Shown in pieces: positions 20,179 through 45,755 of a DNA stretch of 64,000 nt. How positions within the stretch are numbered: the stretch's first letter is position 1; the number at the start of each line of letters is the position of its first letter. The stretch is from Phoronis australis (Eukaryota; Animalia; Phoronida): positions 1,206,618 through 1,270,617 of the forward strand of contig NMRA01000013.1 in assembly GCA_002633005.1 (NCBI GenBank), written 5' to 3'. Below the pieces are notes generated by a model, which saw only the letters and a program-made list of their open reading frames with translations, ran no database searches and was not told the DNA's origin. Both the position numbers and the translations under genes were made by a program.

Positions 20179-21747
20179 TTACTGTGCCGGCGGACCCCGT
20201 GACTCAGACTGGCCTCGGGGTTGCTCCCCCTTCCCCCTTCTCTCGACGCCACTGGACGTGCATGCATTACGAGACCACACTACAGAACGACATTGATTCA
20301 AAATACGTTTTTTGGCTACGAATGCCAAAAATAGATTGAATCCCTGTGTGTTGTTAAAGACAATGAACAGATAAGCGAAGACGTCATGCGGATACCAAGA
20401 ATTAAGATAACCAAACACCCAGGTGATACCGCTAATTGCGATCAAGCGACAGCTGATGAGCAGCAACCAGTACTCGTTCTTTCTTCTTGATTTCAAGCCA
20501 ACTTGTAGCCGGTAAAAGCATACCACGCTTGCAGTAGCTAAAAGTGAGGCAATTACCACACATGTGGCGATAGGAATCGCAAAGAAATACAAAATAGCCG
20601 CATGATTGGAAATCCAGCAAATCTCGTTACCGTAACCGATTGATAAGGGGGTGTTGTCAATAAATTCAAAGACCAATGCAACACCAACAATAGGAGCGGG
20701 AAACAGGAACCCCATGCTGAAACGGAAGAATAAAAACAGTGACATTGGTTCTCGGTATTGTGTTTCCTGGGCGCGCTGGTTGAACTGAGACACCAAGACC
20801 GATGTAGTTGAAAACGAGCGAAAGAGTTGACAGTTAAAAATCAAAATCCATGCAAAATAGGACAGCCATGCAAAGTGAGTGACCACAGCAACAACTTTGC
20901 AGAGAATTTTAAAAGGAAGGGCATGCACACCAAACTGAAATGATAACTGAGCCAGAAGAAGGCTGGCCATCAAGTTTATCGTAATTTTGCCGATATAGCT
21001 TCCCCTCATGTCTTCAAGCAAAAAGTAGGTCGTTATGGTAACCAGCAAAGAACTGCCTGAAACCACTGTTAATGAGAGCGAAACTATACCTTGATAGGAA
21101 GACGAAATCTTTTTCATATCCTTCAATTTCAGTTCTGTAAGCTTAAGAAATTCGTCAACGCATATAAACCCTGTGCTCTCTAAAGTTCCGTTGGACATGC
21201 TTGAGGTAATTTTCGTTGAGTTGCTTAACCGGACCATGGGACAAGTGACAGTGTCCGTATTTTTCATGCCAGTGACGTTTACAAAATAAGTGTGGTTTGA
21301 CAGAGATTTGGAAAGAATGTCCAAAAACTGATACAGCGCACGTGCGTCTCCCTTTACGCTCATATGGGTTTCCATCTTCAGAAACACTCCATTTTCAATC
21401 ACTGTCGCGGAACAGTATATCGTAGCTTTACCTTTGAACATAGCAAAGAAGTGTTTTTCAAATCTATCAGTCCACGGAAACCAATAGGTTGATTTAAAGT
21501 CACTTTGTTTTACTTCTATGTCCATAGTTTTGTTGTACTTGACTAACACAGTTCTTCTGGGAATTCCATACCTCGTGAAAATATTGACTCTTATGAAATT
21601 TGAGTCAAAATTCGATGTGCTTTGAGCTATTGTACGGAAGGTATACGTGATCTTTCTCAATGTGCCAGCAAGGGAAACGAGAGGATCTTGACACTTGTCA
21701 CCGTCAGCATACAATCCGGTGGGACAAACGAATGGCTGACAGATGTC
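20179..21747 (-). CDS. SMB/Cys-rich secretin-class (adhesion/Methuselah-like) 7TM GPCR, exon 2
   Basis: Acceptor ttttctAG|GAC in frame with the 511-aa ORF. Seven hydrophobic helices with class-B motifs (NLMASLLLAQ, CKVVAVVTHFAWLSYFAW, YGNEICWI, GITWVFG, FIVFNNTQG). Confidence 0.9.
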   Translation of the reverse strand, partial: DICQPFVCPTGLYADGDKCQDPLVSLAGTLRKITYTFRTIAQSTSNFDSNFIRVNIFTRYGIPRRTVLVKYNKTMDIEVKQSDFKSTYWFPWTDRFEKHFFAMFKGKATIYCSATVIENGVFLKMETHMSVKGDARALYQFLDILSKSLSNHTYFVNVTGMKNTDTVTCPMVRLSNSTKITSSMSNGTLESTGFICVDEFLKLTELKLKDMKKISSSYQGIVSLSLTVVSGSSLLVTITTYFLLEDMRGSYIGKITINLMASLLLAQLSFQFGVHALPFKILCKVVAVVTHFAWLSYFAWILIFNCQLFRSFSTTSVLVSQFNQRAQETQYREPMSLFLFFRFSMGFLFPAPIVGVALVFEFIDNTPLSIGYGNEICWISNHAAILYFFAIPIATCVVIASLLATASVVCFYRLQVGLKSRRKNEYWLLLISCRLIAISGITWVFGYLNSWYPHDVFAYLFIVFNNTQGFNLFLAFVAKKRILNQCRSVVWSRNACTSSGVERRGKGEQPRGQSESRGPPAQ

Positions 21748-22824
21748 CTAGAAAATAAATAGTATATTAGTGTAGCTTCGATTGAAATGTGTATGAAATA
21801 ATTACACAGTTAGTCCAAGTAAGTAACTTGAAGAACACTTAAAGTTGCATTTTCCCTGTTCAACTGGCCGAATAACGAAAATTTTAATAGACCTTTTACT
21901 CCAACGAAATCAGCCTGAAAGTTTAGTTTCAATTATAAGAATAGTTTAGTGTTATCTAGAAGAACATACAGTACTTAAAAAAGTCAAAAACAAAACGCGT
22001 CGGCCAACACTGAAATTCTAAAATTGAAAAACAATCAAAATAGGTCAGTCACCAGGCAGACCAATGATCATTTCCCATCAGTATATTGCACATCTGTTGT
22101 TGCTTCGGTTAATAACTCGAACTGTGTTTAAAGTAACCGATTAACAGTGATGACTGAGGGAAGTGCACTATTTCAACTTTGTGTTAAAATTCCGCTTCAC
22201 GTGCAAACAAATGGCCAAAATTTTGGACATTACGCGACTAAATCTGAATAACCAAATTATAACGGTCTTAAGTAACGTGGTCTCAATAGTTCCAACCACA
22301 ACATGGCCGCCACCCAGGAATCGTTCCTGAACTAATGTGCGGGGAACTCAGGTCACGGAAATAGACAAGAATCGTGTAGGATATTCTGAATTCGGCGGAG
22401 GTACAAAATTTTGTTCAAAATGGCCTGTAGTTTGATAGAAAAAATAGGAAAACGCTGTAGCATGTTACGTTATCACTTACATGTAGTTTGCATGTATTTT
22501 CATATGTAGGAAAACCCCTTAATACAAGGTCTTTTAATAAACTAATTGACAAATGTTGAAGAAGGTACCTTGCCAAAGGCCGGAAGATAGTGCTACACAG
22601 ATGTTGGTATTGGCGTTTTTTATTTTTACAGTCGAGAGTTGTTACTAGGATTATTTCGTAATTTAAAGTCCTACAGGTATTTACTGTTTTACTGTGAAGT
22701 TCAGTGCTGTTTATGTGCGGCGGCCATTTGGAGTGTGTACCTCAAAAATCAAAAGGCATTCAAAAATTCCATAGCAAATTGTGGTTATTTTAAACACATT
22801 TGATTGTTTATTTGTTCAAAGAAC

Positions 22825-22990
22825 ACAGCGCAGGCCCAAACTGGCACAGCGTCCCAAACTGTCACAACTTCAAAACTGTGACAATTTTGCTCAGCAGTGC
22901 AAGCCCAAATTTTCCAAAATTGTCTTAGAACAAGGCACAAATTGTCTATAGTACAGGCCCAATTTGTCACGATAGCCCAAACAGTCACAA
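22825..22990. repeat. Degenerate short tandem repeats (GCCCAAACTGTCACA-like)
   Basis: Several imperfect copies visible, inside the GPCR intron. Confidence 0.5.
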
Positions 22991-23179
22991 TGGTTCAAAT
23001 TGTTAAATCAACGTAAGTTCTGCCAGTAGAATATTCTAAGCTACTGCGATGAAATTTCCACCAAAAATACGTGCTGTAATATAAAGATACAGTAGGAAAT
23101 TTGAGAAGTTCATGAATACAGGGTTAACAATAATTGTGGAGCTTAGGAGCGGGACAGTTGAGAAGAAAATCTTGCGAAA

Positions 23180-23545
23180 CCTAATGGGATACACACTTCG
23201 GCAGTATGTGATCCCCAAGTAAAGGGTATCTAGTCTTCCCTGCCAGAGCATAAAGTTCTTTTGTCGCAGAATATCTGATGCTATTTTTGTGTTACAGACC
23301 CATCTTCCACGGTTCCGCCCCACTTTTCTCCTCGCAGGAAACGATGTGCTGGAGCATAGTTATTGTGCCCTGCTGGTCAACAAATGTCAGCTCTAAAGAA
23401 AGGGATAGCTACCTAGAGAGAAGAATTTTGTTCGCGGGCAGGCCCGAGTTGAGCTCGAGCAAGGACGTGTGGGTATCTTGAAGTAATGGACTGCCCCCTC
23501 TCCCGCGTGGCTGTGGCGCCGGACACCTTGATAACAACAGTGTAC
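23180..23545 (-). mobile_element. Degenerate THAP-domain relic
   Basis: HCCYQG...AVHYFKIPT ... RGRWV ... (T)LCS ... SVYP, with stops and frameshifts. Confidence 0.35.
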
Positions 23546-24979
23546 TTATTCAATAAAATTGAAAGATTTCCTGAAGTTTTGCGGTGCCCTTCATTTTGAT
23601 CATTAATCAGATCAGAAAGCAAAACACTCTTTCAGACAAGTTCAAACAGTTGCTCAAAAGTCGCTCATTGTCGTTTCTGGTTGTCGAAAAAGCTCCCAAG
23701 GCGCATGTTTGGCCAGTGGCTGTCGGTCATATTTCAGAGTGCCTCGGTGGGCAGATAAGGAAATTTCCGGTAGGAAAGCAACTGAAAAGTTTATATTTAT
23801 ATAAAACGTGCGGCAGTTTGATTCATAAAAAACCTTGCAGAAAAGAACTTTTACCGTAAAGTAAAGCATTTGATTCAGTTAGTTATGGACCAGAGATGGC
23901 AAAAACATGAAAATTTGAGACTGGACCGGAAGTGACGGCTTCGTATGGGAATAAAAGTCACAGCTATCACACTTGAAAGGTTTCCACAAAATACTTTACT
24001 TCACTTATCAGGTATCTTTGAGAAAAAGGTTCAAAATTAACCCGACAAACTTCCTTTATCCACTTACTAAGCATTTTCTTTTCTTTGATTGATTTCGAGT
24101 AGGCTACAAACTTGACATAACGCATCCACGGATATTTTTCAAATTCATCTAACTTTCTCTCGTCGGATTTGCAGCCTGCTCTGCAGTAGCAATACGTCGT
24201 TGGGAATGAAAGGAGGCATAGAGGAATTCATCCTAGAAAAACGTGTAACAATAACGCCAAAACGACAGGCTTTAAAAGTGCTATGCTGATATTGCGGCAT
24301 TGTGGTTGAAAACGACAATATTTGAAAGTCGCATGAGTAGTTTTTCGCATGATGGATGAAAACTTTGATCAGTAAAAAGTGCTTCTTCATTCTGGCAATG
24401 TTTTAAACGAAAATTCCCAGTTTAAAAAATTATGCAAGGAATTTTGTTCCAATTCCGTTAAGGAGATTATTTTGTTTGATAAGTTTTATATCATTAAATA
24501 ATTGAAACATAATCTTTTCTTCATTTGCAGCAGTGCAGAACACACTAAAGATTTCGTTAATTGTGATATGTCACTAAAATAAGAAAATTTCGCAGATTAC
24601 AGTCTTGTATGTAACTGCGTTTTCACTGGCAATTCATCAAAACCAAAGTTCACTACCGTTCACCTGTGGCGGAAATTTTGTTGATAGACATTTGAGCATG
24701 TGTTGATGTAGCAATATTTGTGCATAGCTGTAAACTGGGTTCGTTCGCGATTAAACTCTATTTTGTTTTTTTATTGAAAAGTGGTGGAAAGAATATCTCT
24801 AAACAATTTGAATCAATTCCAAGTGATCTAAGATAATTTCTGTTCTTCCAAACAAGAACAACGGGCAAAGAGGTAAAAAATGTGGATTTGTGGTCCTTAA
24901 AGCGATAACGCGGAAACTGTTGCTAGAGGAAGAGCACGTATTAGTTAAAAAAGTTGTTGTAATGAAAGCATCAATTTAC

Positions 24980-25945
24980 CTGGTATGGATTGTAGAACTG
25001 ACCCCTTGGACATTGCGTCGTGCCTCCTCTAAACACAGAGCGAAAATTTATAATGGCGGTAAAGGATGGCATGTATTCGCCTGGCCGGTAAGGGTTCCAT
25101 TGTATAATATCATTACACCTCGCCGTCTTGTCCAGATTTTTACCGTTGCAAAGAGCACAATGAGGATTTCTGAAAAGCTGAAGTTGACCAAAGTTAGGAA
25201 TTGATACATGTCTGACGTACGACTTGCACGCCTTCTCAACAAAAGGCTCGGTGATGATGCTACAATCCCTTACTTCCCAATCAAAGCATACAATATTAGC
25301 AACAGAGCTGTCATTGCGAGGGAAAAATTTTAAGAGTGGAATATTCAGAAAGACGTCCAAGTTGTCATCAAGTCGATCGCTAAGTAGCTGGATGGTCTTT
25401 CGTAGCTGCGAATTCTCCGGCTCACTGGGCCAGTACAGAGCAATTGTCCAGGGAACTACGTCCGTTTGACTGTTGCACAAAGCGCAAAACTTGTTCTTGT
25501 ATGTTACCGCGTCATCTGACGAGCTCACGGGCAGATGATCCGCGATTGATTTCGGTTCGTTCTCGCATCGCTGCCTGATAAGTGGCAAACTAAATTCTCT
25601 AGGACATTTTGTAATCATGCCATAGGCTATTTTATTGGTCAGTATGTCGTAGAACGTGTCCAACAATCTTTCATTCCAGTATTTTTTATTGATCCAGGTA
25701 GGTTCGTGACAGCTTGAGATGTTGTTTAACTCAACAGTAGAAACGTTGTCCAACATGTAACAGTCGAAGCAACAGTTCCCTAAGTCAATGCAGTGTTGCG
25801 TGCACTGACAACTGCGTGCGTTGTATGTAGGACCACATAAAGCGCTGACTAACGTCGAAATGTTCCGATTCTCACCGTGTAACGCGACTAACTGATAATG
25901 AAGAACAATCGCCAGAACAAGATACCTCGCGATAAACGAACACAT
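24980..25945 (-). CDS. SMB/Cys-rich secretin-class GPCR, exon 1 (signal peptide and ectodomain)
   Basis: N-terminal signal peptide, somatomedin-B-like CQCTQHCIDLGNCCFDC, two NxxCALCN repeats and donor CAG|GTAAAT. Phase 0 joins exon 2 to give 844 aa. Confidence 0.85.
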
Positions 25946-26479
25946 GCTTCAGGTTAAGTTCCACTCCAAGTTTATGACTAACGCTCCAAATCACATGATA
26001 CTTATGCATCCAAACGCCAACAGTAAAACAAAGACACGTAGCAGGTGGATATGAATGTGGTTATTTTTTAAAGTGATTGGACTGTACCATTCTGCTGCCT
26101 TGTTACTGTTACACAGTTGATAACTAAAGAACCAATCAACCCGACTTCGGTCATCAAATACTAATTTTTGCATCACAAAATTTTTTCTATAAAATTGGTG
26201 ACAACTTGTTCCTTATTCAGATGAGGCTGTAGAAGAACTCTCTGTGACCAGCCAAATTATCGAGCCGTAAGGAACTGTCAAGATATTTCCCAGGCTCAGA
26301 AGTCGTTTCTAATACAAGTAAACAACAGGTTAACCCGGATTTACAGCGGTAAGCACCTTCAAATGAAAGGTATTTTTTAAAGGAGTTTTATTAACGCCTT
26401 AGGAATGGGGTTCTGTCTCGTAGATAGATCACACGTAGTACTTTTTCACGACTGCTGGTACATCGGCAGTTAGATCCAT

Positions 26480-27066
26480 CCGAAAATAGTCGTCGTCCGT
26501 TGTCAATATCAAATAAACACACTTGTTAAATTTAGTAAAGATCCTGCAAACGGCCATGGGCGTAAAAAACGAAACTGCCTCTAGGAGGCGCCACAGTAGT
26601 CAAAGTCGGAAAATCATCGTCAACTGTCCTCTTCATATAGTAAAAACATACATGCCAATTTTCAGTCGTGCTTACAGCGGTTTGGTTGATAGAGGGGTGG
26701 GCGCTAAAAACAAGACTCGAAAACAGTAAAAATGGTCACTAGTTCGCACAAACTACGTCGAATCCATCCGAAAACGGGAGGATACCGTAGTCTCACTAAT
26801 AGATGCCTATATACCAAATTTTATGAAAATACGTTGAGAACCTTTAAAGAGGTAAACGTAAAAAACTAAAATTGCCACTAGGGGCACACCGGTAGTCCGA
26901 TCGCTCCGAAAGTTCGCTCATGCCGTCCCATCCATGAAAGGAACACGTGCTAATTCCATGAACATACATAAATCGGTTTTGGAGATAGAGCAGCGGACGC
27001 CCGACGGATGGACGGACGGAGATGACGCCTAATGCGTCCACATTTAAATATGTGGGCACATAAAAA
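26480..27066 (+). mobile_element. Helentron-associated/DINE-1-like interspersed element (copy 1)
   Basis: Internal tandem units with CCACTAG(G)nCGC and CAAATTTTATGAAAAT, a (GGAC)n microsatellite at about 26995-27020, a 3' hairpin CCACAT-ttaaat-ATGTGG (27038-27055) and an A-run. Confidence 0.55.
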
Positions 27067-28707
27067 TTATAATCCTGGCGTCATAATCAAGTGACGTAAC
27101 ATAATAGTGCATACAATAAATTTATTCGGTTGTTTGCCTCGTTCGAGATATCATCAAAAACGCTGTTCAGGTTAGATGAACGTTATTTTCTACAGAAAAA
27201 TATAGGCGTAATAACAACAACAACAACAATAAAATAATAACTTCATTTGAACGATTGGTCACCGGCCTACAGTTCAAAATAGAGTATACAAACTATATAT
27301 GTACGAACACAGCTGTAAAAAAATAACATTTCGTTTCTTTTAACTATACTTTGAAATTTTTTTAAAAGTGTTTGCTGTTTTCTCGTAAAAAGAGACCTCA
27401 TATCGTGGCAGCAGGGTATGAATCCATTTCTCAAATCTACCGTTATTGGACAATGTACATGTAGCATGAAATGCGTTCTGCCTCAATGTCTCCTTATTAG
27501 AAATGTTACGTCTTGTTTCATTTCAAGAATACCATTTCTTGTGCCGTTTTCAGTTTCTAATGTGTGAGTTGAACATCTAATGTTCGCTCTGCAAGAAATT
27601 TGCTCCGGCGTCATCTCCCCACATACATGCTTTTCGCAAGACAACTTAGACTTAACTCCCCTGCAAAATTCACACATTTATTTTGTGTTTTCTAATACCG
27701 GAAACCAACTTTGAAATTGAACATCTCTCAGCCTTTGTTTGAATTTCGACAGAAATATTGTACATCACCGACTCCCTATTTCAAACACACATGACCGAAA
27801 CCAGTTGTATCTGACAAATTTTTAATACAGTTACACCAATTATTTTCATATAACATCAATGAACATAGTTTTGGAAATCTATCATTTTGCCTTTTCAATA
27901 TTTTCAAAAAATATTTTATAAGCCTACACATATAAGATACAGACAAGTCATGCCGGCTACATTACCCCTTCGCCATCACGTTGGTCGTCTTTATAACACT
28001 AGACAAAATTTTGTTTGAACATTTTCAGTTTTTTTTCTGTGGCTAGTACCCCATATTTCTGTTCCAAAGAATAAAATGGGTGCTATCATTGTATCAAACA
28101 ATTTAAAAGCTACCAATGCATTTCTTCTTGGTCCCATTCGTCACAGAAAGTGTTTCACTAAATTCGGCGCTTTTCATGCCTTTTGTACTAGTGTCCTGCA
28201 GCACGTTGTCCAACTTAATCTATTAGAAAACACAATCCCCAAATACTTATAGTAACTGCAAGTCTTCAAATCAATACCCCTGTAATACCATTTTCGGCTC
28301 TTTTCAATTGTCCACTTTTCTTGAAAACCCGGTGTTTGACGTCTGGATGTTTACAGACATTTTCCACTTTAAACATTTTTTTCTAGCCATCCAATCGTCT
28401 CGGTAACACAACAACATTGTCGCCAACTAGAATAACATCGTCGGCGTATAGTAATAAAAACACATTTTCAATGGCGGGGTCAACTTGAATATGCATATTA
28501 CTCAACTTTCCAGTTTTCATTTCAAAAGCAAGCTCACTCATGTACAAATAGAACAATAATGGGCTTAACATACAGCCTTGTCTAACTCCAGTCTTGCACT
28601 AAAAAAGGTTAATATGTTTTTTCCAATTCAGTTTTTATTTTAACATTTATAGTTCAATACACACTCTGTAGAATTCTTAGCAGTGGTCCAACCAAACCTT
28701 TTGATAT

Positions 28708-30508
28708 TTATCTAAAAATCATTCAACAAAGAATGGACTCACCGGAGACAGCCCAAGAGTTGTTATCTCTGCGGCGAAAGATGTTAAAGTTGAGTCCCGA
28801 TGAGTTGCCAGCAGTCACTGGTACGGTGCGCGGCTTTAGACGCTCTGCGGCTGGGTTAAAGATCTTTTATAGGCCTAACTATCCCCAATTCCCGTACCAG
28901 TATGAATTTCAAAAAATAACTTGACTTGGCTGCGTCAGATGTGATATGCGACGTTGATGTTGAAATTGCGCCATATTTTTTATGTTGATTTCCTTTGTTG
29001 GTTTATAATTCATATATTGCAATGTAGGCATCCTGGGGAGGCTTGGATGTACTTGTGACTGTAGAGTCGTCAAAATTTATCCATTCCCATGCTGACGATT
29101 TAACACAGCATGTATAATGACCACCCGTCGTCTTTCTTCCATGGTGTTCAATGACTGCTTTTATTTTGTAGCCGGAGAGGTCATACGAGGAAATCTTTGT
29201 GTTGATTTTTTCACCATTAGTCGCGGTACGTAAGATATGAATACAAAGGTATTTTGGCGGTTTTACTAATGACCATGTGAGCTGGCCACTGAGACTATTA
29301 CAGTTTGGGCAACTAAAGTCCTCGATGTCCAACGACGTCCACAAGCTGTGCCACAACTCCTGCATAGTTATTTCTTTCCTTAGCGTTGGGAGGTAGACGG
29401 TCAACTCCCAGTCTATCTGTGTTTTTTCCTTTGTTGTTGTGCAGTTATTACAGCTCCTAGTTTGCTTCTTCACGTGTTGGAAGGTACTAGTAACCTCAGA
29501 CGTTACATTATCAGCGTTGTGAGCAAGTGTGTCAACGTGCCATTGGTTCAGTAACCATAGTAAAAATTCATGGGCATCCTGTTGACTTCCGTTGCCAAGA
29601 GAGTTGTTCTGTAATCTTAGTTTATTCAAAATTTCAGACGGAGTTGATGTATACCTTTTAGTTGCTTCATATGTGTTCACAAGGATGGTTTTCATATTGT
29701 TTTTCTTGTTGATATTGTATTTGTGCCAGTTGAGGTTGCATGAAAAGATAGCTTGAAGTGTAGAGTTCACAAAACACGTGTTTCCAATATTGCAAAGACC
29801 AAATCTTTTATCTTTTGTTGATTTTTCGTTTGTCTTCCTTGATATCGGGGATGACGAAGTAGCTAATTGTGTTTCAATCTTGGGCTTAGAAATGTTGCAG
29901 AGTTGCCATTCTGTAAATTGCTTGTTATTTCTTGATAAATATATTGTATAGCTACATCTAAGAGCTGTCTGAGATGCCGTTTGGTATGTTTGTTTTTTGA
30001 TTTCTTTGGGGACCTCGAGGAAATTCATTAGCTTCTTTAATGATTTGTAGATGAAGCCTCTACTTCCAACTTCAACAGGGAACAGAACTGTTTGCCATCC
30101 TGCGTTTTTACATTCTTCGACGAGATTTGTATATTTCATTCTTTTTCTCAGGTGTGCTGATTCCATATTGTCTTCTGCTGGTATTGTAAGTTCTATTAAA
30201 ACTGCTATTTTTGCCTGAATTGACCATAACACAATGTCAGGTCTTAATGCCGAATCTGTTATTTCAGATGGGAATATAAGAGGCGTTTCTGTACAATCTT
30301 TAATTAGTTTCCAATCGTTGGTCTTGGCTAGGAAGTGGGTCTGTTCTTTGAATTTCGGCTCTGTTCTGTTATTGTCGAAGTACAAACCGTTCTTTGACTT
30401 AAATCTGATTGCTGTTTCAGTTATAGGCTTTGGAGGGTGTTGAACTACTACATTGATAGCATCAAATATTATTGCTAGGACTTGGTCATGTCGCCAAGTG
30501 TAGCGACC
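28708..30508 (-). mobile_element. 5'-truncated HERO-clade (RLE) non-LTR retrotransposon carrying a C-terminal USP domain
   Basis: Begins at GRYTWRHDQVL, followed by RLE motifs RPDIVLWS, IELTIPAE, RKRMKY and FPVEVGSRGF. About 295 nt of 3' UTR. The host LINE frame rejoins across it (…KMFYIL | ISKGLVGPLLRILQSVY). Confidence 0.8.
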
Positions 30509-30523
30509 TAGTATATAGAACAT
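29003..30523 (-). CDS. Restriction-like endonuclease fused to a ubiquitin-specific protease (peptidase C19), 506-aa open ORF
   Basis: Cys box GLCNIGNTCFVNSTLQ (C250), QQDAHEFL, CxxC...CxxC, His box HHGRKTTGGHYTCCVK (H469), WINFDDSTV (D485/D486) and terminal AYIAIY. The first five codons (MFYIL) derive from the host LINE. Confidence 0.85.
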   Translation of the reverse strand: MFYILGRYTWRHDQVLAIIFDAINVVVQHPPKPITETAIRFKSKNGLYFDNNRTEPKFKEQTHFLAKTNDWKLIKDCTETPLIFPSEITDSALRPDIVLWSIQAKIAVLIELTIPAEDNMESAHLRKRMKYTNLVEECKNAGWQTVLFPVEVGSRGFIYKSLKKLMNFLEVPKEIKKQTYQTASQTALRCSYTIYLSRNNKQFTEWQLCNISKPKIETQLATSSSPISRKTNEKSTKDKRFGLCNIGNTCFVNSTLQAIFSCNLNWHKYNINKKNNMKTILVNTYEATKRYTSTPSEILNKLRLQNNSLGNGSQQDAHEFLLWLLNQWHVDTLAHNADNVTSEVTSTFQHVKKQTRSCNNCTTTKEKTQIDWELTVYLPTLRKEITMQELWHSLWTSLDIEDFSCPNCNSLSGQLTWSLVKPPKYLCIHILRTATNGEKINTKISSYDLSGYKIKAVIEHHGRKTTGGHYTCCVKSSAWEWINFDDSTVTSTSKPPQDAYIAIYEL

Positions 30524-33339
30524 TTTTTCTGTTTTAATTTTATCGAATCAAATGGCTTGCTGAGTCATGACATTTTACTGTAACAGTCGATCTGAATATT
30601 TTTAAGCCAGTTTCAAAATTTGTAGCCTCTGCGAGGTTGGTTTGTCAAGAGCTTATAACACTTGTTAGTCGCTGTGAACGCGACAGTTACAGAAGGTATA
30701 ACTCATTAAGTGACGACTGTTGTCAAATTTCGCCAGTCGATATAAGCACAATAACATGGTTTTGATTTTTGTCTCGATCAATATCTTCCAACCAATGTTG
30801 TCTACCGTTGAATACTGTTCTCTGAAGCCAGTTTGCTTTTCTACCAATAATTTCTTTACATACACCCACGGTTTTAGTCTTTTATTCAACACTGACGTAA
30901 TAACTTTTCTTACAACACTCAACAGTGTTATACCAGGTTCTGCTGCATTGCCAGATTTAAATGAAGGTAAAATTATACAAGTTGGCCATTTCATAGAAAA
31001 GTAACGTTTGAAAGTATACCGATAGTCTGTAACAGCAGACCATTAATTCTATCCATCGAAAATTTATAGAATTCTACTGGGATTCCGTCTACACCTGGAC
31101 TTTTACTGTTTTGCATACTTTCAACCGATTCACCAACTACATCTTCTGGAATATCTTTTTTAAATGGAAACATATCCTCTCTGTTATTGTTTACATCTAC
31201 AGTTCGTAATTCTCCCGACCTCATAATCAAGTGCAGGTTCTGACACAAATATAGATAGGTATTTATGTACGAGTACAGAAGACGTGAAATATAATCTGGA
31301 ATGTCCCGTCATGACGGCTGAGTACAAGCGGTAGAGTTTCCAATCATGGCGCTGGACTCGAAATTCACCATCACAGGCGACGGGAAAAGGAGATTTTATC
31401 TGGTTATTTATGGGGTGCACTACATTTTTCAAGAACGGTGTTACATGAAACGAGGCTGCACGCCTTTTCCAGCGTGCCACCAGTGAATGTCCCAAACTAA
31501 GGTGTTTAGACACATAAACCAACGTTTTGTGACTTGCACTATGAAATAGTCGTCGTGTGAGTACAATTTGTTTACCTCAAACCAGCTTCGCAAACCGGTT
31601 ATAAACTGTGCGATGAAGTGGAAGTGGGTCTCAGATGTGTTTTTGTCAAAACAGCGAGTGTCGTGCTAGATGGCGGTAAGATGGAGAACCACAGAGTAGG
31701 TTTTTTGTAGTTATCTAATTAAAGTGATGGAACTTCTAGTGAGCTATGACGTATTTGACAGAAAAGTCGTGAAAGTAATATCATTACGACATTAGTTTGG
31801 GTTGTCAAAAATATCAAAAAACCAGCAAATGCTCTGTATGAATTGTCTTAAGAGATTACAAAAAAAATAAAAAATGCGACGTTGTTGGACGAGTTGACAT
31901 TGGAAAATTTTGCAAGATTGAACTCTTAAAGCTGCTATATGCCTGTCCTCTGTTAAAAATTTTATCGAATACTTTACTTACAGTTAAAATGGTTTCAGTT
32001 TAATCCTTACTGTGATTAGAAGTGACTTCTGGTATTCGAAAAACAACAACTCGATACCTTTCAGGGTCAGGGACCTGTCTCTCTAAAACGTATCAAATTG
32101 ATTCAAAAACATTTTAAATGGAGACTTACAACCAGTCTTACACATTCAATGTTGAAAAAATGTAGTAAAGTTTCGTCATTTAAGTGAATCTCAATTCATT
32201 GGCTTGACCAGGTGTCGAGTATTGACTCAAACAATAAGGAGTTGTCACTTCCTGAGCCCGATAGTCCCTTCTGAACTGAAAATTCTAAACTAAGAACAGT
32301 TCTACAGCGGAAGTTGTCTAAATTACAATCCAATCGTTTTTGGCAGAAGGCAGGTTTATAAAAGGTTGAGAGCAAATACGGATGGTGGTTCTACATCGAC
32401 CGTCACTGATCTTCCTGAAACTTAATGAGGTACTGAGTCTCCCCTAGATATGGACTACATGTAAGTCACCTTGAATTTTTCTGGCACAAGCCTCGTTTTC
32501 GTTTCTAAGCTGATCTTGCACACATGGCTTTTCCAATACTTATTTCTGTGAAAAAGTCCCAATTTTCAAGACTATTGAGACACCAACTTTTAAAAAAGTT
32601 AAGAGTAACTATGTATTCTTCTGTAAACTTTTCTGACCTTAAGATCCAGAAACACGTCTGATATTTAAGATAGAAATTTTAGTGTTTTTTTACTTAAAGT
32701 ACTGGTTTTTCAAAAACTGAGTTTACGAGAATTTTCAATAGGAAATTTTTAGCCGTTTCCAATGATAAAGCAAGCAAATAATATAGCATTTGTGAATATC
32801 AAACCAGTGTAATTTGACAGCATTGAGCTACTTTAGTACATACATCAAGTCAAAAGTTTGGTCTTTTCTCCGCTTAGTGGTTAACGTGTACATGTACTTT
32901 TACTGAGCACACCGTGCGCTATTTGACTATTCAGGTGCAGTGATTAGATATCAGTTTTGTAACGAAAATGCAGTACAGACATCACGATTTGTATACGTAT
33001 AGTGGGTTTGAATGTATTTAGAGGGTCTTGGGATCATCGGAAGCCCAAGTAGGGGAGATTGGGGGAAGATGAGCCGTTGTCCTTCCTAAGTATTCTGGTC
33101 ACAACATTCACACAAAGTAGCACAAAAGGGGATGGCAAGATTGAAATTCGTGATGGTTGTGGAGGTTCGGCGGGTGGAGACTTTGGTCTGTCAACAAATT
33201 ACGAAGCGTGATTATACAAATGAAGCGAGGCCTTCGTGTGTAAAATACATTGCATTAGAGTGTGGCGTGAAACTAGAAAACATACAAGAGCAACGCGGAG
33301 CGCTCAAATGCGCCCACGAATGCACCGCAAACGTGTGCT

Positions 33340-34175
33340 TCTAGGGGTGTTTATTTGGAACATAAAAATGGCAACTAGATGGCGCAAAATATGTCGAATC
33401 CATCTGAAACCTATTTTATCAAAGTTCATAAAAATCCGTCAAGGAGCTTCTGAAAACCCCAGGAAAACGGAAAAATGAAATTGCCACTAAGAGGCGCCAC
33501 AGTAGATAAAGTCGACGGAAAAGCATCGTCAGACTTCCTCTTCATGCCAGTTTCCACAACCATCCTTAGAGTGGTTTGGTTGACAGAGGGGTAGACGCCA
33601 AATAACAAGACTCGAAAACAGTAAAAAAGGCCACTAGGTGGCGCAAAATACCACCAATCAAACCGAAATCCAGAGGATAGCGTCAACTCACTAATAGATA
33701 CCTATCTGCCAAATTTTATGAAAATCCGTTGAGGACCTTTGAAGATAGAGGTAAAAGTAAAAACTAAAATTGCCACTAGGGGGCACACCGGTAGTCGGAT
33801 CCATCCGAAAGTCATCGTCGATTGTTGTCAAGTTCATAAAAATACATTTGCTAAATCTAATAAAGATCCTACAGAGGGTTTAGGAGATACAGCCATACGC
33901 GTAAAAAACTGCCACTAGGAGGCGCCACGGTTGTCAAGGTCGTCAGAAAATCATCGTTAGCCCTCATCTTCACATTAGGAACATACAAGTTAATTTCCGC
34001 AATCATCCTTAGTTTGGTTGACAGAGGGGCAGATGCCTAAAAACGGAAACGAAAATAGTAAAAATGGCCACATGGTGACGCAAAATGCCTCGAATTTAAT
34101 TAAAAACCAGATGATAGCGACACTTCGCTAATTGATGCCTACATGTATTAGTTCTGCCAAATTTTATGAAAATCG
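33340..34175 (+). repeat. Interspersed Helentron/DINE-1-like family (copy 2)
   Basis: Shares AACAAGACTCGAAAACAGTAAAAA, CTCACTAATAGAT and AAATTGCCACTAGGGGGCACACCGGTAGTC with 26480-27066. Confidence 0.7.
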
Positions 34176-35559
34176 ACGAGAATACTGGGACATCAGAATT
34201 CTAAAGGTGGTCTTTCATGAATTTTTTCAAAAATACAATATTCACAGACTGTTTAACGTTATACCTTAAATTTCAAATGAAGCTTGGAATGTTTCTTTAA
34301 TGCATTATTTATGTGCTAGAGTAAGTTGCAAGTTGTTTTGGACAGCTCCGACTGATTTCAATTAATCGACAAATTTTAGGCCTTTTAATTTTCGATGCTT
34401 AAACATGCCCTGAATATACAGTGCATGTGGGTTTGTGTGGACTTACATGAGCTTGAAACATAACGTGCGGGCATAAGAATCATACTTGTTGTATAAGCGC
34501 AATATTTACGCTCATACATACCCCATTATGGAAATGAGATCTTTTTCAAAGAAATTTTTTGTCCAAGTCTTTCGCAACGAAGCGCATGCACCTAAGATTT
34601 TTCCATAGGTAGTCAGCAATTCCTCATCAAGAATGTGCATGTGATAAACTGAGTGTTTTTGTACCTCTTTTATCTGTTCAGTACCTATCATTTAAATCAC
34701 GAATTACTTACTATAAGTCTGAAGTTTGAGAAATACGATGAACAGCAAAATCGCCCATGTCCCAATTTAAGAATCAACTTGTCTAACTTCAGAACATCAT
34801 ATCTCAAAAATGGCTGATCGGATTCATATGAAACGCTCAGGTACTATTTTTATGCATGTTTCTGTAAAACTACATTAGGAATTGTTTTCAAATTCTTCCA
34901 CTTATGCATGACGCGTTATCAAAAATAATGGCTTTTAATTTTTATAAAAAAAATAAAAGTTGCATAAAATGAAACCAAATGATAATATAGAAAATTTTAA
35001 CAGTGCCTATGAGTTATCCTGTTGATAATTTATATCAACTGAACACTGGTCATGTTATTTATACCATTATTATGAATATACATCTCTTTTTGCTAAATTC
35101 TGCTGAAAATGCATGGATGGTCATGTGACCCAATTAATGGAGTATAGGTAAAAAGTCATTAATCAAATTGCGCTGCCTATCTACTTTCAAAATGGGTTTT
35201 GTAGATATTCTGCAAAACACTAAGTCTTGCCATTAGGTCCAACATAACCTTAAATTTACAAAGATGAAAGTCAAGGACTGAGAAAAAAGATGCATTAAAT
35301 GTCTCATGCAAGATGTGTATATGTTCACGGGACCCACACGCACTAAACTGACTTAGCGCAAAACCGCGACCAATAAAAATACCTTAATTTGCATTTAACT
35401 GTTATAATGTATGTAATATTTTTGATGCTCAGATATAAAGCCTTCTACTTTTTTCTGGGCTTAACTCTTGTTAATGTAATTGCGTTTTTTATAATAAAAA
35501 TTAAAAAATAACAATGCCGAGCGTTGAAATGCACACACAGCAGCAACGCAAACAGTGAA

Positions 35560-37037: not shown

Positions 37038-38111
37038 GCGACAAAATATGATCTAACTTTTCGAAAACATTTATTTTACACGGACATATTTTGCTTCGTC
37101 GGCGTATGGCAACGACCCAACGCTTCCGAATCTAAACGTCTTTAGAGATTGTGAAGCGTGTCCGTATTTTTTCTAGCCGTTCGGGGAACAACACGGACTG
37201 AGACACAGACTCCTACAGTGTATGCCGATAAGCTAACAGAGCTATCGTAGCGAGCCTCGTTTTGGAACGCGCCTCCTGTCGGCGTGAATAGGGTCTATGG
37301 TCTATCCCTGAGAGAACCATGTCTCAAAAACTTTTTGTGACAACATCGGGAGTGATTTTAAAAGGAGATTTTCATGAGACTAGGCACTTTGTGTAATGAC
37401 AGAAGAAACGTTCAGTCAAAACTTGAAGGCATCAGCATTTTATTTTTTTAGAAACCAAAAATGATAATTTTCACAAAAACTACCAATTACGTGACGATAT
37501 GTAATTGTGCGATATTTGAAAGCCTGCATTAAGATTTTCAGTAATTGAAGATTCAGGAATGCTGAATGTAGACCTTAACTGATTGAAAATGAAGGACTAA
37601 AAAGTTTTTTTGGTGAAAATTGAAATGAATTCACAAAAGCTGACAAGTGCTAGAGAAAACTTAAGGTACGCAAGAAACCAAAAACATCATATCAGGATGC
37701 GCAGATATAATGAACAATTTACATTTAAAACGATTCTAAAAATTCAAACACCAAACTGGAAAATTCTGTTGAAGTTTTTTGCATTTCTTTGAAAAAATAT
37801 GTCATGCTATCAGCACCACATGAAAATTCGAGTTCCTTTTAACGTTACATGTCAAGTGTTATCAAGATTATAATGAACAGGAAGGCGTAGAGATTATAAT
37901 GCTCGCTGCTCAGTCCCACTCCATTTTGACACAGTTTTCATATCCTGTAACAAATGCCATAATTCTATTGGGTACTAGCTATCAGGAAGTGTTTGTTATT
38001 GATAAAAAATCACCATAAGTAACATCAAGACAGATTACATAGACATTACCTGAACTAGATGGCAGGGGAGTGGAATCACTAGCTTCTAGCAACTAAAAGA
38101 CTGAGATTAAC

Positions 38112-40322
38112 ATGGAGTGTTTGTACATCTTTGTGATACTACTGTGTCTTATCACAGAAGTGAGCTGCAACTGTGTGGTTATACGGAGCAATGATACGAG
38201 TGAATGGAAAAAGTTAACTACTAAACAGCCTCTTGTGAAATGCTTTCAGGCCACGAGTCTCGGTCTTGAGAGGTTATCAAACACAGGGCAACTGTGCACC
38301 AGTTTGGCAAACGTCACCACCATAGACGTATCAAACAACAGCTTTCGCAATATTGAGGATATCAAATGCTTCGTAAAAGTCCAACATCTAAATTTATCCT
38401 GGAATAACATGGAGAGCTTACAAAGACACGATTTTAGAAAGTTTGGGGAACTGAAAACTGTCGACCTATCTTGGAACAAGATTAAGCGTATTTCGCCAGA
38501 GGTATTTCCATGGCAAAATCTACAGAAACTGGAGTGCATAAATTTGACGCACAATAAATTGACAGAGCTGGACACGTGGTACCTAATGCTCAACAAGAAC
38601 ACATTCAGATATTTAAATGTATCCTACAACAACATTAAGATATTTTCCAACTCCTACAAGTGGGATCTTAAAAATTCAACGCGCACCACAAGGAAACATC
38701 CGAAGTTATGTCTCGACTTGTCTTACAACAACGTAAGTCAAATCAGCTATGAAACAATACTGTCTTTTAAGTTCCAAGATCTTTTTACTGATCCTTACCG
38801 CACTTTGTCCGGAACCGACTTATTTGACATTGATGCAACATTTGGAAACAGTATACAGACATTATTTACAGGACACAAATGGAAATGTGACTGTGACATG
38901 TACCTTTTTTACCACTTATTTTGGGAAGCAATGTGCAGGCATTTAATAAAAGTACAGCGAACGGTAAGTGAAACAAGATGCGTTTCTGTGTGGGGAAGTA
39001 AACAAGTAACTATGGAGACACAGTACGGAAACTGTCCAAGAGATGTTCTATGTCAAAAGTATTCTAAAGGAGAAGCACGTGATTTGTTACAGTGTTTATT
39101 GAATTATGCGACCTCCATCGTATGCAGCGATACCTCAGAAAACTTTGGAGGCAAACGTTTGATAAATCTGAATAAATCGGAACTTTATGCAACATGTACC
39201 GTGAGGCAAAATTGTCCAAATGCCTGCTCATGTATTAAAGATTATAAAAATACATCAATCATAAGTGTGAACTGCACTGGTCAACACTTGACTGATCTAC
39301 CTCATCAAATGCCTTCAGGAAATCTAAAATTATACATGAACAAAAACGAGATAAAAGAACTTACACAAAGCAGAAACTACTGGAAGCAAGTTATTGTTCT
39401 GGATATATCATTTAACAATATCAGCCAAATGAGTGATTCTGTTTTCTGGGATATGACCAACTTGAGAGAACTTTATCTGCACAACAACAAAATAAATGAA
39501 ATCAGCAAGAAAATCCAAGATGTTTTGCAAGAACGGAAATTGAATATGTTCCAGATATATGAAAATCCACTAGAGTGTGATTGTCGTCTTCAAAATTGGT
39601 TGAAAAATCTGAAATCTGTACATAATGACTTTGTTACTGTTACATGTGGCTTCACTGGTTTACAAAGTCTGATGGACTATGACTGCAGTATCGATGTCAC
39701 AGGAATAATCCTTATAGTTACGTTTCCTGTTTTTATTACTGGTGTCCTGCTGTTTTTCGGCTACAGATACCGACAACAAATAACAATTGTGCTGTATAAT
39801 CGCATTGGTGTTCATTTCGGTCACATGCTAGAAGAAGTGCATGAATACGAGGACAATGACGCGTTCGTGTTCTATCACTCCGATATCGATGACCAACGTA
39901 AATTCGTCAGAGAGAAATTTTGCGCAGATCTTGAGAATGGCGCAACGCCCTATAAGCTAATCATTCCTGACAGAGATTTTGAACTAGGGATTTCCTTTCA
40001 GGAAAACATCAACGTAGCAATCAAGAAAAGTCGGCGTTGTATACTGATCGTTTCAAGGGAATTTATCAAGAGTAAGACTTGTATGGGCGTGTTTCAGCTA
40101 GCACATGAGAAAAACGGTGACAGGAAGGGGCGCTACCTCGTGATAGTCAAGTACAACCAAATCTACAGAAATGACTACCTAGACAGTGCTTTGCTTGCAG
40201 AATCAAATGTTCTATATTACCAGTACATGCACCTGGGTTGTTTCACTGACAGAGCAAGCAAACAATTCACAAGGAAATTAAAGTACATGATGCCAAAGCC
40301 TAAGAGAGAGAGAGAGAGATAG
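38112..40322 (+). CDS. Toll-like receptor, multiple-cysteine-cluster type, intronless, 736 aa
   Basis: Signal peptide, LxxLxLxxN LRRs, internal WKCDC cluster, LRRNT CPNACSC, second LRR block, LRRCT NPLECDC, TM helix and a TIR domain (DAFVFY, DRDFELG, SRRCILIVSREF). Confidence 0.93.
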   Translation: MECLYIFVILLCLITEVSCNCVVIRSNDTSEWKKLTTKQPLVKCFQATSLGLERLSNTGQLCTSLANVTTIDVSNNSFRNIEDIKCFVKVQHLNLSWNNMESLQRHDFRKFGELKTVDLSWNKIKRISPEVFPWQNLQKLECINLTHNKLTELDTWYLMLNKNTFRYLNVSYNNIKIFSNSYKWDLKNSTRTTRKHPKLCLDLSYNNVSQISYETILSFKFQDLFTDPYRTLSGTDLFDIDATFGNSIQTLFTGHKWKCDCDMYLFYHLFWEAMCRHLIKVQRTVSETRCVSVWGSKQVTMETQYGNCPRDVLCQKYSKGEARDLLQCLLNYATSIVCSDTSENFGGKRLINLNKSELYATCTVRQNCPNACSCIKDYKNTSIISVNCTGQHLTDLPHQMPSGNLKLYMNKNEIKELTQSRNYWKQVIVLDISFNNISQMSDSVFWDMTNLRELYLHNNKINEISKKIQDVLQERKLNMFQIYENPLECDCRLQNWLKNLKSVHNDFVTVTCGFTGLQSLMDYDCSIDVTGIILIVTFPVFITGVLLFFGYRYRQQITIVLYNRIGVHFGHMLEEVHEYEDNDAFVFYHSDIDDQRKFVREKFCADLENGATPYKLIIPDRDFELGISFQENINVAIKKSRRCILIVSREFIKSKTCMGVFQLAHEKNGDRKGRYLVIVKYNQIYRNDYLDSALLAESNVLYYQYMHLGCFTDRASKQFTRKLKYMMPKPKRERER

Positions 40323-43809: not shown

Positions 43810-45755
43810 TGTCCAAACCTAATACTTGGTTGTCTGGCGTAGTCGGCTACCGTTAATGGTTATCCTTGCCAATGTGACCGTCTTCTACGAGTCAAGCATT
43901 GGCTTGACCAAGTCAAGTATACCATAATACATGTCATCATCACCGACATCATCAACAAAAACAACGCGCAGCTTTGAAATACCCCCACAAATGCACCTTA
44001 AAGAGTGTGCTTCGAAGGGGTGAATTTAGTATCATAAAAATAACCATTAGATGGCACAAAATACATTGAATTCGTCCAAAAAAACGGGAAGGTGCCGTCG
44101 TCTCTCAAAGCTATATGCCCAATTTTATGACAATCTATTTAAAATCTCCAATTAGAAACCATTTGCCTCTAGGAACCACAGCCACAAATGCAAAACATGC
44201 ACTAGGAGGTATCACCGTAGTCGGCGCCATAAAAAACTGTCGCCAACTGTCCTCTTCCCAGTAAGAACATATATGACAAATTTCATAATTATCCTAAAAG
44301 TCGTTTCGCTAAAAACAGACTCAAATATCATGAAAATAGGTGGCGTGCACTACGTCAATTCCATCCAAAAACAAATAGATGTTAGCGCTTAACTCCAAAA
44401 ACACCAAAGAAGACAGAACAAATTTACATATATCCTGCAAAGGGTCTAGGAAATACGGCCACGGGCACAAAAAACTGCCACTCGGAAGAGCAGATATACT
44501 TGGAACTGTCTGAAGATCATCGTATACCATTCTTTTCTCAATACAAACAGTTTTCATAATCATAATCATACTTAAAGTGGTTTGGCGAATAAAAGAGGGC
44601 ACATGGTAAAAAACAGGATCGAAAACAATAAACACTAAAAATTACCATTAGGTGGCGCAAAATATGACAAATCCCTCGAAAGTGAGAAAGTGTTATTGTT
44701 TCTTTAATAGAAACCCGTTTACCAAGTTGCATAAAAATAAGTCCAGGAACTCCAAAGAAACAGAGGAAAACAAAAAAAAAATAAAATGTCACCAGAGGGC
44801 GCACAACGTTTGTTGGATCCGTCAGAAAGTCTTCGTCGTCGTCTGACTCGTCAACTTCATATGAATACACTTTCTTGCTAAATTAAGTAAAGATCCTACA
44901 GTGGACTTAGGAGATACATTTATGTGCGCAAACAGTAAAAATGGCCACAAGGTGACACAAAATACCTCGAATCTATCCGAAAATAGAAGAATAGCGTCAT
45001 CTCACTAATTTAGGTGCCAAATTTGCTGAAGATACAGAGGTAAACGTAAAAAATTAAAATTGCCACTAGGGGACTAACCAGTAGTTGATTCCGTTCAAAA
45101 TTTGTTGTCATCCATTGTCAGCTTCATAGGAACACATCTGCCATATCTCATCAAGGGAGAGGGATTAAGGAGACATAGCTGTGGACGCCAGACACCTAGA
45201 CGTTCGGACGCCCAGACAATATGCGTCCAATTACATTATATAAAAACACAACTTTCAAGAGTTAACAGATAACAAATGCTTCATCAAAAACGAGCATCTG
45301 AATTTTTCTTGGAACAATATGAGGCAATTTTTGACATTTAAATGTGAACTGTGAATCGGTTTTGTATATGTTAACACACATCTCCCCAAAGGTGTTTCCG
45401 TGGAGAGACCTTAAGAAGAGGGAGATCCTAAATTTCGAAAAATAATACGCTGACAGAGACTCTTGCTATCTAAAGCACAATAACAACACATTAAATGTTA
45501 GGTATTTAAATGCGTAGAACAGCAACACTGAGATAGTTCCAACTATTACAAGTAGCATATTACAGATTCAATGCGATCTATTTATGTCTTGACTTGTCTT
45601 ACAATAACATAAGTCAACTAACTCCATTATACAACAGACAGAGTTTCGAGATCAGAAAACTTCATTTTTAACAGTATAAAAACGTCCCTTGCAGGCCACA
45701 AATGGAAATGTGACTAATGACATGTACCCTTTTTACTGGTTATTTTCAAAGCAGT
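43810..45755 (+). pseudogene. Degenerate tandem duplicate of the TLR ectodomain, split by a ~1.3-kb repeat insertion
   Basis: 45240-45755 is colinear with TLR 38330-38930 (CAAATGCTTC, TTATGTCTtGACTTGTCTTACAAtAAC, CACAAATGGAAATGTGACT, GACATGTACC) and has stops and frameshifts. 43863-43900 (LANVTV) weakly matches TLR LANVTT. Confidence 0.8.
44030..45235 (+). repeat. Same Helentron/DINE-1-like family (copy 4), inserted in the TLR pseudogene
   Basis: Repeated CCACTAG/CCATTAGGTGGCGCAAAAT units, AAATTGCCACTAGGGG and a GGACG-rich 3' end. Confidence 0.65.

Follow-up and report, generated by a model that had tools for sequence, protein, structure and literature searches.

A ubiquitin-specific protease domain follows the restriction-like endonuclease in HERO-like non-LTR retrotransposons of Phoronis australis and other sources

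A multicopy non-LTR retrotransposon of the restriction-like endonuclease (RLE) type in Phoronis australis has an open reading frame in which the RLE is followed, within the same protein, by a ubiquitin-specific protease (USP, peptidase C19) domain, and the same architecture recurs in many other RLE proteins. The copy described here is HERO-like and, judged by a step in depth and by loose ends, 5'-truncated; it lies on the minus strand at 28707..30508 of the window, the 64,000-nucleotide stretch of contig NMRA01000013.1 that was analysed. On the conservation of its sequence, the USP of this element family is likely to be active as a deubiquitinase.

The minus-strand frame at 29003-30547 is free of stops and yields 506 amino acids when counted from the ATG at 30523. 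It encodes the end of a CCHC region and the RLE (residues 6-205; 29909..30508, minus strand), recognised by identity to the RLE of the full-length relative P0002 and by conserved motifs; an S/T/K-rich linker of approximately 35 amino acids (29807..29908, minus strand), predicted from its low pLDDT to be disordered; and the USP catalytic domain with the stop codon (residues 240-506; 29003..29806, minus strand), recognised by Pfam UCH, Foldseek, and conserved residues. The 3' UTR of approximately 295 nt (28707..29002, minus strand) was delimited from contigs and reads of other copies. An earlier note on this DNA had described one 506-codon stop-free frame joining RLE, linker, and USP, and the ORF, the Pfam match, and the AlphaFold2 model bear this out.

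Two RVT_1 pieces, on the same strand as the 506-aa ORF, lie on either side of it. The first, at 30668-31042 (E 6e-4), belongs to the upstream part of an older broken non-LTR reverse transcriptase (RT; 30509..31308, minus strand), and the second, at 28386-28598 (E 5.4e-9), to its downstream part (28383..28707, minus strand). Excision of 28708-30508 restores a single reading frame between the two pieces, which indicates that the element inserted into the older RT; this junction test revealed neither a target duplication nor a target deletion at the insertion site. Other copies depart from the window sequence at 30508, and the 5' end of the element is therefore 30508 and not 30523. Codons 1-5 derive from the older host RT, and thus the start ATG of the 506-aa ORF is accidental. 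Of the extent given earlier (28708-30523), the fusion frame is real, but the upstream boundary has to be moved accordingly. The 30-letter loose end at 30508 is, by manual reading, in frame through the last zinc-knuckle Cys. At the other end of the element, at about 28705-28708, reads and contigs of other copies enter unrelated flanks, and a poly(A) tail is absent after the 3' UTR of the window copy. A blastn comparison of the element with the 64-kb window returned only the self match. The window itself is animal DNA, with a Toll-like receptor gene (38097-40322, plus strand; intronless, LRR-TIR) and a secretin-family GPCR (7TM coding region at 20179-25948, minus strand) nearby; an ORF upstream of the latter weakly matches somatomedin B. 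Additionally, a dispersed repeat family, rich in diverged internal repeats, is present at 26434-26913, 33363-34182, and 44035-45155.

All of the RLE motifs previously named for this protein were located: RHD at residue 11, RPD at 94, IELT at 110, KY at 130, and PVEVG at 149. RPD, E111, T113, E151, G153, and R155 are kept in 42-43 of 43 fusion proteins, and P95, D96, and E111, which belong to the PD..E-x-T/K catalytic motifs of the RLE, are present in all 43. The window RLE is 45% identical to that of P0002, and its closest match is P0081 (47%), whose 203-aa ORF is without a USP. In the usual HERO layout, no further domain comes after the RLE. Here, in contrast, the window ORF continues for 301 residues C-terminal to the RLE and ends in a USP. 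That the RLE normally ends the ORF in this group, as had been stated, agrees with the 2-9 residues that follow it in Branchiostoma, Seriola, and Danio elements. Many RLE relatives terminate at the RLE.

The earlier designation of the element as HERO-type is plausible on sequence similarity: full-length relatives have RT-CCHC-RLE in a single ORF, and unlabelled elements of Branchiostoma and Danio, presumably HERO, share 34-35% identity with the window RLE. It requires qualification with respect to lineage: the window RLE groups with P0002, P0078, and P0081 (SH-aLRT 90) and lies outside the strongly supported fish/lancelet clade, in a tree without labelled HERO sequences or an R2/R4/NeSL/CRE outgroup. 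HERO targets are mostly non-specific and in some cases microsatellite-specific (PMC4640811), and likewise the flanks of the present copies are diverse and the window copy sits in an old RT without target duplication. PMC13580325 refers to an inventory of RLE elements, Hero among them.

The C-terminal domain is a USP of peptidase family C19, as judged from its Cys box, His box, and predicted whole-domain fold. The Pfam UCH profile matches residues 242-504 with an E value of 4.4e-34 and over positions 2-254 of 254, and each of the 40 PDB sequences that match the window protein is a USP. The catalytic and structural residues were located as N245, C250, Q314-Q315-D316, C358/C361, C405/C408, H469, D485, and D486, so that the intact-looking C250, H469, D485/D486, QQD box, and two CxxC pairs reported earlier are confirmed. 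A single-sequence fold of the USP gave a pLDDT of 38.9, and an alignment-based AlphaFold2 model (residues 6-506, 49-row alignment) was used instead. With a pLDDT of 88.7, this model predicts two folded domains, RLE and USP, separated by a low-confidence linker in which pLDDT falls below 50 at model residues 213-231 (ORF residues 218-236). The top Foldseek matches in the PDB were USP46, USP12, and USP36 (E about 1e-21; USP46: E 3.9e-22, target TM 0.74), and USP18-ISG15 was also among the fold matches. The Cys, QQD, and His boxes, the zinc finger, and the fold are shared with cellular USPs (USP46/12, USP36/42, USP8) and with giant-virus USPs. In comparison to cellular USPs, the element USP is a minimal core without accessory domains and is intronless in the window.

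Contigs of four runs, as well as three RNA runs and one DNA run, were compared with the region; runs X1-X3 come from one study, perhaps the source of the assembly, and depth in these data is not equal to copy number. Contigs of the flanks had depths of 28-34 in X3, 2.5-5.2 in X1, and 2.4-3.3 in X2, and RLE contigs had depths of 155, 30, and 33, respectively. An X1 contig that runs from the end of the RLE through the linker into the USP (29472-29944) had a depth of 48.5, and the 3' UTR was the deepest-covered part of the element, with bins up to 1833 in X3. The gradient from RLE to 3' UTR fits a 5'-truncating non-LTR family. So does the pattern of loose ends, which are spread over many positions on the 5' side and coincide on the 3' side, where the copies run into flanks that disagree with one another (agreement 0.48-0.79). 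In X5, which belongs to a separate study, a 780-nt contig covers the RLE-USP junction (29220-29971). Beyond 30508, contigs of X1, X2, and X3 and 16 RNA reads of X9 extend upstream into knuckle sequence; therefore, longer copies exist in the genome. These can be followed as far as the CCHC region and probably reach an RT. A second frequent 3' end, with many unlike flanks, occurs at 28741-28743, and the adjoining 28741-28850 has very high RNA and DNA depth, with a read strand opposite to the ORF in X8 and X9. This segment may represent a short non-autonomous partner or a subfamily.

Among the best-supported rows of the variant table, from which all variant counts were drawn, the window copy differs from the majority at about six ORF sites and is thus young. 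Variants seen in DNA were synonymous in 15 of 20 cases, in comparison to about 27% expected (p 1e-5). By domain, these were 10/10 synonymous in the RLE and 5/9 in the USP, the latter a weak excess (p 0.065). Among variants confined to RNA or to X5, 8 of 20 were synonymous. RNA covers the ORF; however, diverged or truncated copies account for much of it, two truncated copies supply many of the reads, and frameshifting indels are present. First mates over 29003-30508 are mostly of the minus strand, which is antisense if the library is of the commonest stranded type; in that case, antisense transcription of the ORF is possibly a source of small RNA. The earlier suggestion that 5'-truncated copies would spread the USP holds for its DNA, but the RNA-only variants look neutral, and selection is therefore likely to act on full-length copies. 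Overall, multicopy junction contigs and conserved catalytic residues point to a recently active family of which the USP is a fixed C-terminal ORF part, as had been proposed.

Three word-indexed searches and one exhaustive search supplied database proteins, each of which was screened against profiles for the RLE and the USP. In 56 of 212 RLE proteins examined (the window protein and 55 others), a USP lies C-terminal to the RLE, which is not an estimate of frequency, because the queries favoured fusions; members of look-up clusters were excluded from this count. The 56 fusions, window included, form 39 single-linkage clusters at 50% identity. When cluster members are counted, 28 of 72 RLE-USP proteins are longer than 1000 aa and contain the YxDD-type motif of an RT. 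Many relatives have full RT-CCHC-RLE-USP frames, and full-length examples with both RVT_1 and UCH include P0002, P0004, P0006, P0008, P0237, P0250, P0256, and P0407; in P0002, RVT_1 has an E value of 1.4e-21 and the best PDB match is the R2 protein (E 1e-33). Most of the RLE-USP proteins are encoded on assembly contigs of 3-7 kb, approximately the size of one element. The linkers of relatives are 35-272 aa long, and the USP cores of the elements measure 259-328 aa. P0079, P0099, P0173, and P0179 carry 3 to 10 tandem USP domains per protein.

The USP is complete in 43 of these fusions and cut short in the remaining 13. The oxyanion Asn of the Cys box and the catalytic Cys are present in all 56, and the catalytic His and second Asp in all 43 complete domains. 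The position equivalent to window residue 485 is D or N in 41 of the 43 and S in two; the zinc Cys residues are kept in 42-43, and the QQDAHE box retains both its Asp and its Glu in 42. These invariant residues, in USPs only about 23-27% identical to that of the window, argue against a neutral, dead domain, which the earlier note had named as a possible outcome.

The relationships of the USPs show more than one acquisition. RLE and RT-RLE trees were midpoint-rooted without an outgroup, and USP trees were built from 91 rows and from 36 of these. In the RLE and RT-RLE trees, USP bearers fall into three clades and isolated rows: clade A (P0003-6 and kin), clade B (window, P0002, and P0078), and clade C, near the fish/lancelet elements. 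In AU tests on the 36-row set (LG+G4), a single clade for all 17 element USPs was rejected (p-AU 0.0005), and the union of the window and clade A as one USP group, named post hoc, was rejected more weakly (p-AU 0.028). Clade A USPs nest with malacostracan USP8 (support 100/99), share 40-53% identity with the catalytic domain of Palaemon USP8, and retain only USP8 residues from about 713 to 1045, the N-terminal part being gone. For P0003-P0006 and P0264-P0275, the donor of the captured domain can be traced. The USPs of clade B form one group at 95/82 in the 36-row tree, matching their RLEs, and are not resolved in the 91-row tree. The window USP groups only with those of P0085, P0002, and P0078, and the trees point to no particular donor for it or for clade B; P0085, a 373-aa ORF without an RLE on a 2-kb contig, has the USP nearest to that of the window (32%). 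Sampling of host USPs is thin and branches are long, and thus these trees are taken to indicate only that RLE elements acquired a USP at least twice. Because clades A and B adjoin each other in the RT-RLE tree (SH-aLRT 93), it is possible that an older USP was replaced by USP8 in clade A. Of the previous proposal that an active family had captured a deubiquitinase, capture therefore stands, but the domain is widespread and repeatedly gained rather than confined to one family.

A giant-virus donor was also considered. No relative of the window USP was detected in viral contigs by exact peptides, and an alignment scan of viral contigs gave 80 loci, nearly all of them USP-coding by profile and none with an RLE. 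The best viral loci are about 26% identical to the window USP, no better than host USPs, and none of 22 viral tree representatives groups with it, despite a language-model feature score of 0.96. Therefore, this donor is unsupported.

Ubiquitin-family proteases on transposons are a known theme. In PMC4640811, an N-terminal Ulp1 is described in NeSL and Utopia elements. NeSL and Utopia-1_TSP resemble the present element in being RLE-type non-LTR retrotransposons with a cysteine protease for ubiquitin-like tags in the RT polyprotein, but their Ulp1 (C48) is N-terminal, whereas the USP (C19) is C-terminal to the RLE. Similarly, PMC2836005 describes transposons of the Ginger1, Mutator, and Helitron types that carry Ulp1 or OTU, together with a Trichomonas transposase-Peptidase C19 protein (XP_001314237.1), and proposes a role linked to ubiquitin and DNA repair for transposase-borne Ulp1/OTU proteases in transposition. 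All of these cases, on that account, likewise fuse a transposon protein to a ubiquitin or SUMO protease; they are DNA transposons, however, with C19 in one protein, in contrast to a retrotransposon architecture in dozens of families. The earlier proposal is limited by the fact that a C19 domain on a transposon had already been noted, in the Trichomonas protein of PMC2836005. For non-LTR elements, no published report of a USP or C19 domain was found in the full-text literature, a scope outside which Repbase/Dfam and most subscription journals lie. As far as searched, a C19 domain after the RLE of a non-LTR element is new, and it seems unlikely, although by no means far-fetched, that the architecture is already catalogued somewhere.

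The USP is not the only enzyme found in this position. A domain similar to the ssDNA ADP-ribosyltransferase DarT (PF14487, E 1e-20 to 1e-26) was detected in P0234, P0088, P0184, P0155, and P0380. It follows the RLE in P0184, P0155, and P0380, and P0234 (1738 aa) has the order RT-RLE-DarT-USP. A metagenome scan with P0088 gave 31 loci, of which 16 have a DarT-like domain, in 10 cases in the same ORF as the RLE; Pfam confirmed DarT in 4/5 loci checked, the other (L082) being without DarT by both methods. Further RLE-element loci with a DarT-like domain are L083, L084, L090, L094, and L104. No published report of DarT in non-LTR elements was found in the full-text literature. Additionally, the HERO-like P0200 and P0382 have a C-terminal NADAR domain (E 7e-31, 15-member cluster), P0382 (1378 aa) being RT-RLE-NADAR. 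The HERO-like P0023, P0025, and P0026, nested among fish/lancelet-type elements, instead have an N-terminal Ulp1 (Peptidase_C48), and P0080 has a weak Peptidase_C98 match. By analogy among these lineages, the HERO-like C-terminus could be a position in which elements repeatedly take up, as cargo, enzymes that alter damage signals where the DNA is nicked: deubiquitinases, a DarT-like DNA ADP-ribosyltransferase, a NADAR eraser, or DarT and USP in one protein. This generalisation is possible but doubtful at present.

The function tentatively proposed for the USP is that of a tethered, active deubiquitinase that works on the insertion complex at the nick and thereby aids insertion. The single protein of the family would be RT-CCHC-RLE-linker-USP, with the window copy a recent, 5'-truncated derivative. 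Tethered beside the endonuclease and acting in cis, the USP would remove ubiquitin at the nick, both from the insertion complex and from repair or chromatin factors of the host, which would let target-primed reverse transcription finish. A tethered, cis-acting enzyme is suggested because catalysis is conserved, the fusion is in frame, and a bare catalytic core was captured. The location of the substrate at the nick is the most speculative part; it is favoured over protection from turnover because the slot adjoins the endonuclease and is occupied in other lineages by enzymes that act in DNA ADP-ribosylation, although DarT and NADAR, coming from other lineages, are an analogy. The USP is dispensable for this class of element, since P0081 and many RLE relatives are without one, and a place beside the RLE need not matter, since related elements carry Ulp1 N-terminally.

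The in-frame fusion and the bare catalytic core suit cis action equally well if the USP chiefly deubiquitinates the element's own protein and shields the RNP from proteasomal or autophagic turnover before it reaches its target. Viral polyprotein deubiquitinases, which stabilise their own polymerase, provide a precedent, and the slot is filled by USPs of different origin, so that a generic activity may suffice. Self-protection leaves the occupancy of the same slot elsewhere by DarT-like and NADAR domains unexplained, however, and as the chief role it is considered somewhat unlikely.

It is improbable that the USP works in trans against silencing or immunity, for example on histone H2A ubiquitin or on small-RNA or innate pathways, with truncated copies helping. 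USP-coding 3' ends are indeed the most numerous parts of the element and are transcribed, and by language-model features (0.96) the compact domain is like giant-virus USPs. Against this, variants seen only in RNA are near neutral (8/20 synonymous, as above), the RNA contains frameshifting indels and may be of the antisense strand, no RNA reads were present over 30562-30900, upstream of the window copy, and a benefit shared with non-carriers would give no reason to keep the fusion.

Still less probable is an action on another ubiquitin-like tag (SUMO or NEDD8), or cleavage of the element's polyprotein. The USP fold does include Ubl-specific members, such as the USP18 matched in complex with ISG15, and both the weak Peptidase_C98 match in P0080 and the SUMO-type Ulp1 of related elements fit such a role; the near-universal retention of the QQDAHE-box Asp and Glu speaks against another tag, and none of the 56 linkers contains an [LR]xGG site for polyprotein cleavage. 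Finally, although none of the contigs covers the stretch from end to end and only 30 letters bridge the 5' junction of the window copy, a one-off chimera, misassembly, or neutral passenger is barely credible and is refuted at the family level by the multicopy RLE-USP junction contigs, the X5 contig from a second study, the 55 other RLE-USP proteins, and the invariant catalytic residues.

With this architecture, the repair idea put forward in PMC2836005 can be tested directly, by a single point mutation in a natural element. A tethered deubiquitinase could also bear on R2-type gene-insertion tools, and minimal USP cores of 260-290 aa are useful for deubiquitinase biochemistry. Retrotransposition is believed to be held in check by host ubiquitin signalling, both at DNA breaks and on the proteins of retroelements. 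That RLE elements have captured a USP more than once and have long kept it intact suggests that this check is severe enough to favour a counter-enzyme. Should the C-terminus prove to be a recurrent cargo slot, RLE retrotransposons would change the ubiquitin and ADP-ribose signalling at the sites where they insert, which would constitute a counter-defence layer not described for non-LTR elements.
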